Assembly (NCBI GenBank): GCA_965207445.1
Contig: CBDBLX010000002.1
Coordinates: 1,623,849-1,687,848 of the forward strand
From: Nitrosopumilus sp.
Lineage (GTDB): Archaea > Thermoproteota > Nitrososphaeria > Nitrososphaerales > Nitrosopumilaceae
Reading direction: 5' to 3'
Length of the DNA stretch: 64,000 bases
The position numbers were made by a program. Of the stretch, positions 21,001 through 24,000 are shown piece by piece (the first letter of the stretch is position 1; each line of letters starts with the position of its first letter).

Positions 21001-24000
21001 GAATCACAGGCTACACTATCGTATGCGTCTGGCCAAAAACCAAAAGCGGTTTGGTAAAATACTATCAATTGCAGGGAATATCAACGTCCTAAACAGATTT
21101 ATCTGCGCTCATAAAAAAGGGCAAAAGATTCCATCATACCAATGATAGTGACTGCTATCACACTTGCACGTCCATATTCTATAATCCATGTCTGCCAAAA
21201 CACACATGTATATTCAAAAACGAAACGCACTATAGATAGATTCCAGTCTTTTGTAGATTGAATGTGCAATAAACCAAGTTCACAGACGGGTCACAGGCAG
21301 GCCAAATGTCAATTACGCACCAACCTCCCATGCCAGACATATATTAAAAATGATCACACGTTATTTGCAACCAAACTTTGTTCTGTGCTAAGACTTTTGA
21401 GTGTCGCTATAGGAAGAGTACATCATGCAACCATTCAGTATACGAGGGTGGTGGGGCGTAGGTATTACGTAGTTAAGTATCTTATTAGTCAAGTTCAAAC
21501 ATTTAAAAGCGGTATTTCCTATTAGCTAATAATGATTACACATCAGGAAATAGGGGTTTTAAATCATGAACCCAAGCTTAAGGAGAGTAAAGAGAGGGTG
21601 GCACGACACTTTGAGGATGCAGGGTGGACGCTTTATTACAACCAGATGATCCGAGGTAGAATAGCGGATCTGGTGGCCGAAAAGAACGGAAAACTGGCAA
21701 TAATCGAGGTAAAGGGGAGTGGATTGAAACGGGACAATGCCATTCGGACAGTCCTGCATTTTAAAAATGCCGTAAATTACGCATACCTGGCAATCCCCGG
21801 TGCCCTAGGCCAGAGAATGGAAAATATGTGCAGAGAGTTGGGAGTGGGCCTGATTACCATAGACGACGACATTATAGAGGCAGTATCTCCCCAGGAAACA
21901 GAGGCGCTGGACTCAGTAAGGTGTAGGATCCTTCATGTGGAGAAAAAGCGGCCTGCAGTTCGGAGAAAGAGTCTCCTGCAGACGTTATTCCGATCAACGA
22001 CGCTTGTGCACGTACTGGGCTTTCTGCTGCTGAATCAGACAGGCGAGTTTTATCTAAACGAGCTGGCACAGAGGACAGGGCTGGCACCATCGACTGTCCT
22101 GAGGGAACTGAACAGGGTGGAGCCATTAGGTATCATCTCCAAGACCAAAAAGGGCACGGCAGTGTTTTATAGGATAAACAGGAACTGCATAATCCATGAG
22201 GAACTAAGACGGATATTTCTAAAGTTTGAGATTGCAGACATGATCATCACAAAGGAACTTGCACAGTACGACATAAGGTACGCGCTGATTTACGGTTCGT
22301 TTGCCAAGGGGACAGAGACAGAGTCAAGTGACATAGACTTGTTGGTTATAGGCCAGGTATCTAGGGACAGGTTTTATGAGTCAGTTTCAGCCTTGGAAAA
22401 CAAGATAGGGAGGGAGATCAACGCAATCGTGTGGGACGAGCAGCAGTTTAGTAGTCAGAAGGAGAGATCATCACTATTAGGCCATATAAAGCTCAATGAG
22501 ATAATCATGATAAGTGGGGATGAAGATAGATTTAAGCAATATTGCACGATAAGAAGATAGTACACTATCAAAGTAGTCAAGAAGAGATTGACTCGAAGAT
22601 CAACATAGTAGATGCCAACCTGAGATCGTGTAAGCATATCGTACTGATAAATGATCCGGACGTAGACGACACTGCATACAAGGAAGCTCATAACGCAATA
22701 CTGCAAGCCAGATGGATGCAACATAATGAGTTATCATGTTTACAGAATTGCACCAATTCTTGATTCCCCATGTCAGTGGGGTGTAGAGCAATGCAGAGCA
22801 AATCAAGGCATGGATATATCTGATGATGCTATTTGGGTGTGTAAGAGGATGAGGCGCTGGGGGCGGGATTTGAACCCACATACGCTTGGGCGCGTACTCC
22901 CTCTTCAGAGGAGCGGCATGCCGAGTTAGCCGACCCCAGCAACCTTTTTTAACACACTTTGCTTAATACCCTATAGGTGCACTAAAGAGGAGCAAATTGG
23001 GCGCGTACTCCAACAGCACCTTTTTTATCATAACATCAGTTGACTACGACTCGTCTCATTTTTGTCATGAATCTCTTTAGACCCACTCAGTATAGGATTC
23101 GAGTCCCTTTTTGCCATCTTGTGTTGTTGCCGTCGTCAGTAGTTTGCAATATGTTTTATATGATTTTATTTGAATAATCTACAATGTAGTTAAATTTTAA
23201 TGATTATATTTAATCAAATCAAATAGAAAGTGTAACATATGGGAATATTCTAGTATTTCTGATTATATATGAAAAACTATGTATTAAAACATTAATATAA
23301 ATTATGAGAGGTAAATTATAAAGTTTTACAAAAACGATTCTTCAATTTTGGAGTAAAAAAATTAACCAGATATAACAACAAGTATGGCGTGGATGATTAT
23401 CTCGGTACACTTGCCACCATGTCACTTGACAACATGTGCGTAAATGCAGCAACACACAAAAGAAAACATAATGAGGCTAACTATTTTAGAAAAAGTGAGC
23501 GCATAAACATACCATCTGAAAATACTGTGCTCAAGTCTAAAGAGCTCAGATCTAGAACAGGTGAAACAGTGGGGTGACGAGAATATCAAATGTTTAACAA
23601 TGCCAAAAAACACAACATGCTCAAAAAAGGCAAACACCATTGCAATTGATGAGCAGATGGGAATATTATGGCAAGGCACTTAAATCTGAGATGCTAAAAA
23701 CAAAACACAATAATGGTACTAGGATTTCATTCATTTATGACAGCGCAAATGATGAACCACGCAGGTAATTGTTTGCAAATCGTGTGACCAATAATGATAA
23801 AATGGTCGCAGTCATGCGTAAAATTATTGAAAAATTAATTCGAGAGCATACACGTCCGGAACTTGTCCTCTTTGATCGAGGTTTTTACAACGTTGCATGT
23901 ATAGAAGAACTTTTGCGCCTGCCTTTCATAATACTAGCAATTAAAAATAAGCGTATATAAAAGTATATTTTAAAAGTTCACAACAAAAAAAGAAAACCTG

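Follow-up and report, generated by a model that had tools for sequence, protein, structure and literature searches.

A serine-type tRNA with a phenylalanine anticodon and its cognate predicted antisense RNA gene: a candidate RNA-only toxin-antitoxin cassette in Nitrosopumilus

We analysed a stretch of 64,000 nucleotides of a Nitrosopumilus sp. genome (assembly GCA_965207445.1, contig CBDBLX010000002.1), hereafter the window, in which a single tRNA gene was found (22853-22940, minus strand). The data strongly support that this tRNA, whose body and anticodon belong to different amino acids, is paired with a cognate and co-varying predicted antisense RNA gene. The design extends to a second class of such pairs, built on alanine-type tRNAs, which was absent from the initial annotation of this DNA. 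The toxin-antitoxin function proposed in that annotation is, by comparison, a step further, which we infer from identity rules and from experiments in other organisms. The elements of the pair, in window coordinates, are the following:

22853-22940, minus strand: extra tRNA gene with a serine-type class II body (ARAGORN; Rfam RF00005, 44.7 bits)
22904-22906, minus strand: anticodon GAA (Phe), followed by G37 (from the sequence and ARAGORN; the same in public-run contigs)
22907-22914, minus strand: target A (8 nt), comprising G26, the 5' strand of the anticodon stem, C32 and U33
22886-22900, minus strand: target B (15 nt), comprising the 3' strand of the anticodon stem and the 5' strand and loop of the variable arm
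22941-22975: spacer of 35 nt with back-to-back promoter-like elements
22947-22952, plus strand: TATA-like element found by motif search, a putative promoter 24-29 nt before the antisense start
22963-22968, minus strand: non-consensus TATA-like element 23-28 nt before the tRNA, picked out by eye and outside the search motif, a tentative assignment
22976-23026, plus strand: predicted antisense RNA gene of 51 nt, back to back with the tRNA and 35 nt upstream of it
22976-22980 and 23016-23020, plus strand: closing stem GGUGC/GCACC of 5 bp (from sequence and fold)
22986-22993, plus strand: block A', exact complement of the 8-nt target A
22997-23011, plus strand: block B', exact complement of the 15-nt target B, separated from block A' by a 3-nt linker
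23021-23026, plus strand: T6 tract, the 3' end of the antisense element

The extra tRNA described in the initial annotation was recovered by both detection methods and by its fold, a canonical and fully paired 7/5 cloverleaf with 7/7 acceptor pairs and a T-stem of 5 bp. Its gene does not fully encode CCA. It carries G1:C72, C2:G71, G73 (at 22855) and a variable region of 17 nt, and so has the long variable arm and the G73 that are given as the archaeal serine identity elements (PMC9976931). The weaker determinant listed by the same source, G30-C40, is replaced by C30:G40 in this tRNA, whereas all four tRNA-Ser of the host have G30:C40. The anticodon loop reads CUGAAGA. The C30:G40 pair and the complete anticodon for PheRS are features that count against a toxin-antitoxin reading. 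Since a normal class I tRNA-Phe(GAA) and four tRNA-Ser are also encoded in this genome, the serine-body GAA gene is an extra one. The locus is identical in contigs of four public runs, which were made from a single sample that may be the one behind the assembly, and are not independent; as these contigs match without differences, the GAA anticodon cannot be put down to a consensus error in this assembly.

On the antisense side, the element of about 50 nt that had been annotated with a closing stem, a T6 tract and complements of 8 and 15 nt was found in full. Its two blocks stand in the opposite order to that expected of a simple antisense copy, and its closing stem is borderline (permutation p 0.055; fold z -0.9). 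Across the 47 tRNA rows of the genome, the longest exact upstream run is 15 nt at this locus, followed by 11 and 10, and is at most 8 in the other 44. The first place given to this tRNA in the initial annotation therefore stands, but the second extra tRNA with a 14-nt run was not reproduced, the runner-up being an alanine-body GUC tRNA with 11 exact nucleotides (see below). Among the tRNAs of this genome, the element also pairs best with its own: the duplex energy of the element is -40.3 with its own tRNA and -32.9 with the next, and its cofold gain is -6.7 kcal/mol vs -3.2. In a further comparison, nested cofolding gives -8.1 with the own tRNA and -8.6 with a badly folded non-cognate one. Pairing is estimated at -13.6 kcal/mol for block B alone and at -27 kcal/mol for both blocks, values that include no loop penalties and are optimistic.

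The promoter-like elements of the spacer have counterparts at related loci. Of 31 divergent modules, 17 carry a TATA-like motif on the antisense strand at a distance of 4-14 nt from the start of the tRNA, compared with 6 of 39 normal tRNAs, whereas the promoter motif of the tRNA itself is present in 8 of the 31 modules vs 23 of the 39 normal tRNAs. These frequencies suggest that the antisense promoter is strong and the tRNA promoter weak.

We searched for relatives with a serine pattern (serine-type D-loop, long arm, A or U at position 35), which matched 32 loci in species genomes, 2 in viral contigs and 38 in metagenomes. Within the family, serine-body mismatched tRNAs are more frequent than the 11 of 401 genomes counted earlier, with 33 matches in 25 of the 401, and 32 of the 33 have A35. 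The ACG tRNA formerly reported in one relative (G122) was not reproduced, being unmatched by the search patterns used. A pattern for C or G at position 35 without G34 gave 6 matches in the 401 genomes, 2 of them non-serine. Cognate runs of 10-17 nt were found for 20 of the 67 unique serine-pattern hits with enough upstream DNA, an unfiltered set that includes phage tRNA arrays, intron-containing Met and two Ser ACU non-members. The non-cognate runs across these hits have means of 5.3-6.9 and maxima of 7-12, and the longest run in 22 normal tRNA-Ser controls, one of which (L012) comes from a genome flagged as unpublished (G260), is at most 8 nt. Likewise, the duplex z is -2.6 or lower in 20 of 65 serine rows and never below -2.6 in the 22 normal controls, from which one artefactual row was left out. 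In nested cofolding, the cognate tRNA came first in just 12 of 26 cases of this class.

The serine-type antisense elements come in two folds. Class I, to which the present locus belongs, is a stem that encloses block A' and then block B'; it is found in Nitrosopumilaceae and Bathyarchaeia, in divergent, upstream-tandem and downstream-tandem (L409) layouts, with the same block order in all. Of the 17 class I loci, 13 have a T-run after the stem, and in 8 the closing stem has p<0.05. Class II, seen in Thermoplasmatota-type and other records, consists of a colinear antisense with a hairpin after it, and 1 of 9 passed a terminator test (T5 rule). In loci whose antisense extends as far as the anticodon, its sequence changes with the anticodon (GAG in L047; GAA in L050, L055 and L061; AAG in L048), as judged from marked alignments; an automatic flag can fire on chance 7-mers.

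Position 37 separates the serine-body rows of the family, 31 of the 33 matches having been examined for this feature. Runs of at least 9 nt accompany 9 of 11 G37 rows, and none of the 20 A37 rows has a run above 8 nt within 140 nt. The A37 subfamily is the majority of the serine-body rows in the family, and since all 20 lack a nearby antisense, mismatched serine-body tRNAs can persist without one. In many A37 members the acceptor stem is extended by pairing between leader and trailer, which may block maturation. A search for a distant antisense of one A37 tRNA, in two genomes, returned a single site with one mismatch, about the chance expectation. The A37 rows without nearby antisense, and the cofolding in which just 12 of 26 serine cases rank the cognate first, are observations that count against a toxin-antitoxin reading. 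Several tRNA copies that look decayed while their antisense is kept (L006, L008, L094 and L097) count on the same side, as does the modest share of class I loci with a significant closing stem. Three UAG tRNAs of Bathyarchaeia (L038, L070 and L090) may be the resident tRNA-Leu; in one genome (G576) only the odd tRNA was matched. Neither of the 2 serine-pattern hits in viral contigs has an antisense, and the viral contigs gave no hits for S35 anticodons. The module had no match in plasmids, and its BLAST search against the 401 family genomes returned mostly T-arm matches to ordinary tRNAs.

The runner-up of the genome ranking belongs to the second class:

G000:C2:231161-231233: alanine-body tRNA of the same genome with an Asp anticodon (GUC), G3:U70 and A73

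Its antisense is divergent, with a complement of 11 nt exact (16 with G:U), a hairpin and a T7 tract. There are 19 alanine-body mismatched tRNAs in 9 of 301 family genomes, with up to 6 in one, in a search that covered non-alanine anticodons other than those with G35; 14 of the 19 have A35. Eighteen have an exact complement of 10-18 nt across the anticodon loop, divergent and upstream in 15 cases and tandem and downstream in 3, and an automatic test found a hairpin and T-tract in 17 of these 18 modules. The cognate flank is strictly the best in 18 of the 19 rows (the 342 off-diagonal cells average 6.3 and peak at 10), and cofolding prefers the cognate tRNA in 18 of 18. The longest runs of normal tRNA-Ala are at most 8 (8 tRNAs of 5 carrier genomes) or 9 (103 tRNA-Ala(UGC)). 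Most alanine-body anticodons are two or three changes away from NGC and are thus not the result of single-step drift. Outside the family, none were found in 172 genomes of a phylum sample, where the 6 matches were shifted normal tRNAs; on viral contigs, the matches listed in two scans, at least 120 in each, were chance matches or shifted normal tRNA-Ala(UGC), of which the 103 normal ones are the controls above. In both classes, the predicted antisense appears to target the part of the tRNA that is unlike the host isoacceptors, namely the variable arm in the serine class and the anticodon arm in the alanine class.

The surroundings of the pair in the window are the following:

16336-24650: insert of 8.3 kb between leuB (15244-16335) and leuA (24651-26258)
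21532-22560, plus strand: neighbouring gene for a protein with HTH and nucleotidyltransferase domains (Pfam), PADLOC PDC-M05A-like (E 5e-42)
22542-22763, plus strand: neighbouring ORF of 73 aa with in-frame stops after it and no family match

The distance between leuB and leuA is at most 80 bases in four of five same-genus genomes and 1.2 kb in the fifth. Within the insert, segment 21300-23165 is single-copy and lies between multi-copy repeats that are probably IS remnants. No clean cassette-free allele was found in the public-run contigs, where the joints came from repeats. The HTH-nucleotidyltransferase gene is not common to the other loci, and we therefore treat it as context and not as part of the pair; the 73-aa ORF is, from its position, possibly HEPN-like. 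At 25 other antisense-type loci, the 108 flanking ORFs share no protein family beyond close kin. Within 2.5 kb of these loci there are transposase domains at 7, an integrase at 1 and a restriction enzyme at 1, and several of the 25 sit between housekeeping genes. The Pfam matches obtained for the neighbouring ORFs in the window and for the 108 flanking ORFs include no cas gene, and the tRNA is the sole Rfam family matched at the locus.

What could such a cassette do? In about 190 bp, it combines a body/anticodon-mismatched tRNA with a small hairpin/oligo-U gene whose complementarity is to this tRNA and no other. We think it rather probable that it is a two-gene, RNA-only system in which a mistranslating tRNA is the toxin and the antisense RNA the antitoxin. 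SerRS and AlaRS, the synthetases of the two tRNA bodies that the searches covered, are both described as ignoring the anticodon (PMC9976931; PMC10543346). SerRS would thus charge the extra tRNA by its variable arm and G73 regardless of the anticodon, and the tRNA would consequently insert Ser at UUC/UUU codons. This would be expected to be proteotoxic, given that yeast tRNA-Ser with GAA or GAU is reported to be lethal upon accumulation (PMC6125640). The antisense would pair with the variable arm and with both strands of the anticodon stem. Since the gain in nested cofolding at this locus is modest (-7 to -8 kcal/mol), it would probably act on the nascent or unmodified precursor, blocking folding, charging and decoding. 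Host tRNAs would be spared because the antisense avoids the shared T-arm and acceptor. Should the antisense be lost or its synthesis halt, the stabler tRNA would be freed, which would either make the cassette and its neighbours addictive or arrest an infected cell. The alanine class would work in the same way through AlaRS and G3:U70, the only element that this enzyme is said to read (PMC10543346), with an antisense centred on the anticodon loop.

Most of the anticodons found read codons for Phe, Leu or Ile. The distribution is patchy, with up to 6 paralogues per genome whose antisense RNAs are predicted to be free of cross-reaction. On balance, we lean towards an undescribed and widespread class of selfish or defensive cassettes, in which a tRNA misreads hydrophobic codons as Ser or Ala and a cognate antisense is the antidote, new specificities arising by coupled change of anticodon arm and antisense. 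Such a class would have arisen on two or more tRNA bodies, with two or more antisense folds, in several lineages of archaea and perhaps also in bacteria.

It is unlikely, though worth weighing, that the pair instead provides regulated and beneficial mistranslation, the antisense acting as a switch that would allow a low level of Phe-to-Ser substitution during stress or symbiosis, with no addiction. Natural mistranslating tRNAs have been described as possibly beneficial (PMC10404621), most modules have a weak tRNA promoter motif (the 8 of 31 vs 23 of 39 given above), and the A37 subfamily persists without nearby antisense. Yet the patchiness, the up to 6 non-cross-reacting paralogues and the sites near transposases and in inserts fit selfish diversification better than one host programme. 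Next in probability, and likewise unlikely, is an action of the tRNA other than mistranslation: it could remain uncharged, or be charged poorly, and act as a decoy for anticodon nucleases or synthetases, or it could be charged according to its anticodon, with the antisense setting its level. The C30:G40 pair of this tRNA would fit, as would the rank of GAA as the main PheRS determinant (PMC9976931), and some bacterial allo-tRNA(UAU) are reported to be inactive in translation, although two of them killed E. coli (PMC5389517). However, tRNAs with many different anticodons retain G73 with the long arm, or G3:U70 with A73, archaeal Phe identity is listed as including A73 (PMC9976931), and a decoy would not need the bodies of anticodon-blind synthetases.

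The comparison of paralogous cassettes bears on whether the upstream match acts as RNA at all. Of 93 pairwise differences in the anticodon arm, 75 are matched in both antisense copies, the pairs not being independent, and paralogues are homologous for the most part only within the cassette, from about -100 to +80 of the tRNA start and sometimes more. In 44 modules, 23 internal mismatches are G:U-compatible vs 7 of the A:C type (p 0.003, inflated by kin); by class, the counts are 11 vs 4 for serine (p 0.06) and 12 vs 3 for alanine (p 0.02), with kin again not independent. A DNA duplication would be expected to accumulate both kinds of transition equally, and the G:U bias points to RNA-RNA pairing. 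We consider it very improbable that the match is a repeat at the DNA level (partial duplication, integration scar or gene conversion) without RNA function. In divergent loci it is indeed a direct repeat on the DNA, and class II and alanine-type copies are colinear with the tRNA. But inverted and downstream layouts keep the same block order, the class I order is swapped, and hairpins with T-tracts (17 of 18 alanine modules) or T-tracts (13 of 17 class I loci) accompany the match. Integration scars duplicate the tRNA 3' end and T-arm, neither of which lies within these matches. The G:U bias, the promoter motifs, the swapped order and the inverted layouts are read most economically as marks of a functional antisense RNA, and the decayed duplication that the initial annotation had itself raised is disfavoured by the bias, the order and the layouts. 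On this comparative evidence, the tRNA-antisense pair is conserved as a design and is co-evolving.

Least probable of all, and hardly credible, is a processing or modification guide for maturing, editing or splicing of the tRNA: guide RNAs do have two-block complementarity within a closing stem, as here, but this element has no box C/D motifs, no Rfam family besides tRNA is matched, the block order is opposite to that of an H/ACA pocket, the loci share no enzyme gene, and the alanine-class antisense covers the whole anticodon loop. Genome-wide codon reassignment was rejected, given the normal tRNA-Phe of this genome and the anticodons that differ among kin; a normal tRNA-Phe was likewise found in 3 of 5 genomes tested for its replacement by the mismatched one.

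Among known antisense systems, those of type I toxin-antitoxin modules and the loop-kissing RNAs of plasmids are also small cis-encoded genes, divergent or tandem, with their own terminator and with paralogues that do not cross-react; their targets are toxic-peptide mRNAs or replication primers, not tRNAs. Full-text literature searches returned no paper with a title or abstract opening that describes a tRNA with a cognate antisense gene, in a coverage outside which most subscription journals lie. The mistranslating tRNAs of Streptomyces reportedly make one fixed substitution, vs the many anticodons here, and we know of no antisense partner for them. They too are a natural family with a conflict between body and anticodon (PMC10404621). 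Engineered yeast tRNA-Ser, in which a Ser body with GAA leads to Phe-to-Ser misincorporation and death, offers another parallel (PMC6125640); these yeast tRNA-Ser and tRNA-Ala variants are artificial, eukaryotic and controlled by tRNA decay, not by antisense (PMC6125640; PMC10543346).

The closest tRNAs are the bacterial allo-tRNAs, which also have Ser or Ala identity with diverse non-cognate anticodons, insert Ser at Leu codons in E. coli, and adjoin transposons as well as protein toxin-antitoxin genes (PMC5389517; PMC7609411). The present tRNAs share the identity and the non-cognate anticodon; however, they are archaeal and canonical 7/5, whereas allo-tRNAs are bacterial and have the 8/4 or 9/3 acceptor/T-stem that is lacking here (PMC5389517; PMC7609411). 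The words 'antisense' and 'complementary' are absent from the main text of one allo-tRNA study (PMC5389517). The closest toxin-antitoxin system is CreTA of Haloarcula (type VIII), in which both components are likewise RNAs, archaeal, acting on translation and following an addiction logic (PMC12737573). There, a rare tRNA is described as being sequestered by the mini-mRNA CreT, whose promoter CreA represses through Cascade (PMC12737573). In the present pair it is a tRNA that is the candidate toxin, and the antitoxin would bind it by direct pairing without a protein partner. As in type VIII systems, two RNA genes are adjacent and without a protein partner, the antisense gene being a predicted one, but there is no crRNA-mimic antitoxin in a CRISPR-cas locus. 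The pair is neither an allo-tRNA nor a CreTA.

If the toxin-antitoxin reading is true, a protein-free cassette of about 190 bp would poison by mistranslation, a new use of the genetic code as a weapon, and would explain why tRNAs with mismatched body and anticodon exist in nature, a question that goes back to the discovery of allo-tRNAs. The predicted pairs imply that an antisense regulator can be dedicated to a single tRNA, and orthogonal tRNA/anti-tRNA pairs would make useful switches for controlled misincorporation. For the ammonia-oxidising archaea, they also mean that annotation by anticodon miscounts the tRNA sets.

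The protein-coding genes in the window include the following:
21532-22763: PDC-M05A-like HTH-nucleotidyltransferase gene, then a broken partner ORF
18335-19576, minus strand: SDH/ClpP-like protease gene, split in two pieces
The nucleotidyltransferase has an additional N-terminal domain, and its broken partner ends just beyond the 3' end of the extra serine-body tRNA. In the region of the protease gene, 84 bases (window 19203-19288) are missing from the contig of one public run. Elsewhere in the source genome (G000), the tRNA-Gln and tRNA-Gly genes are identical between contigs C1 and C2 (1-82 kb of C2), which suggests that C1 represents the beginning of C2 in a second haplotype.

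The same genome encodes a second pair, outside the window:
G000:C2:231161-231233, plus strand: alanine-body tRNA with an Asp (GUC) anticodon (locus L233)
Its antisense is divergent, carries a hairpin and T7, and lies about 100 nt upstream of the tRNA. The anticodon stem of the tRNA contains two G:U pairs, and its decay may be under way. The alanine class, that is, alanine-body tRNAs with a non-alanine anticodon and, in nearly all cases, an antisense spanning the anticodon loop, was recognised starting from this locus.

Several further loci hold unusual long-arm or serine-type tRNAs:
G246:C276:5401-5431 region (L011): long-arm tRNA with a UAU anticodon and G73, its D-arm differing from the host type
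L103-L106, genus g17: tRNA-Ser copies with an ACU anticodon, apparently partial or second copies adjoining normal GCU genes
L064 and L089, one viral and one metagenome contig: long-arm tRNAs with a CUA (amber) anticodon
L038, L070 and L090: Bathyarchaeia-type UAG tRNAs with G73, an encoded CCA and an antisense in tandem
The last three occupy a conserved site adjoining M20 peptidase genes, and may be either extra or resident tRNA-Leu.

A subfamily of serine-body tRNAs is marked by A37:
L032, L033, L044, L046, L051, L052, L068, L073, L080, L091, L100 and part of L395-L419
Most have a GAA anticodon and some GAU; their stems are divergent in sequence yet fully paired, and pairing between leader and trailer lengthens the acceptor stem by as much as 10 bp. 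No antisense was found near these tRNAs.

Other serine-body loci combine the tRNA with an antisense or have an unusual layout:
L086 and L098, GC-rich metagenome loci: CAG tRNAs with an upstream antisense, the host possibly other than archaeal
G145:C1:45289-45760 (L002): two GAU tRNAs, head to head
A GAG module (L054) sits within a cluster of ribosomal protein genes, flanked there by those for L32e and L18. Between the head-to-head tRNAs of L002 lie a third tRNA-like sequence and a single antisense element, which may serve both tRNAs.
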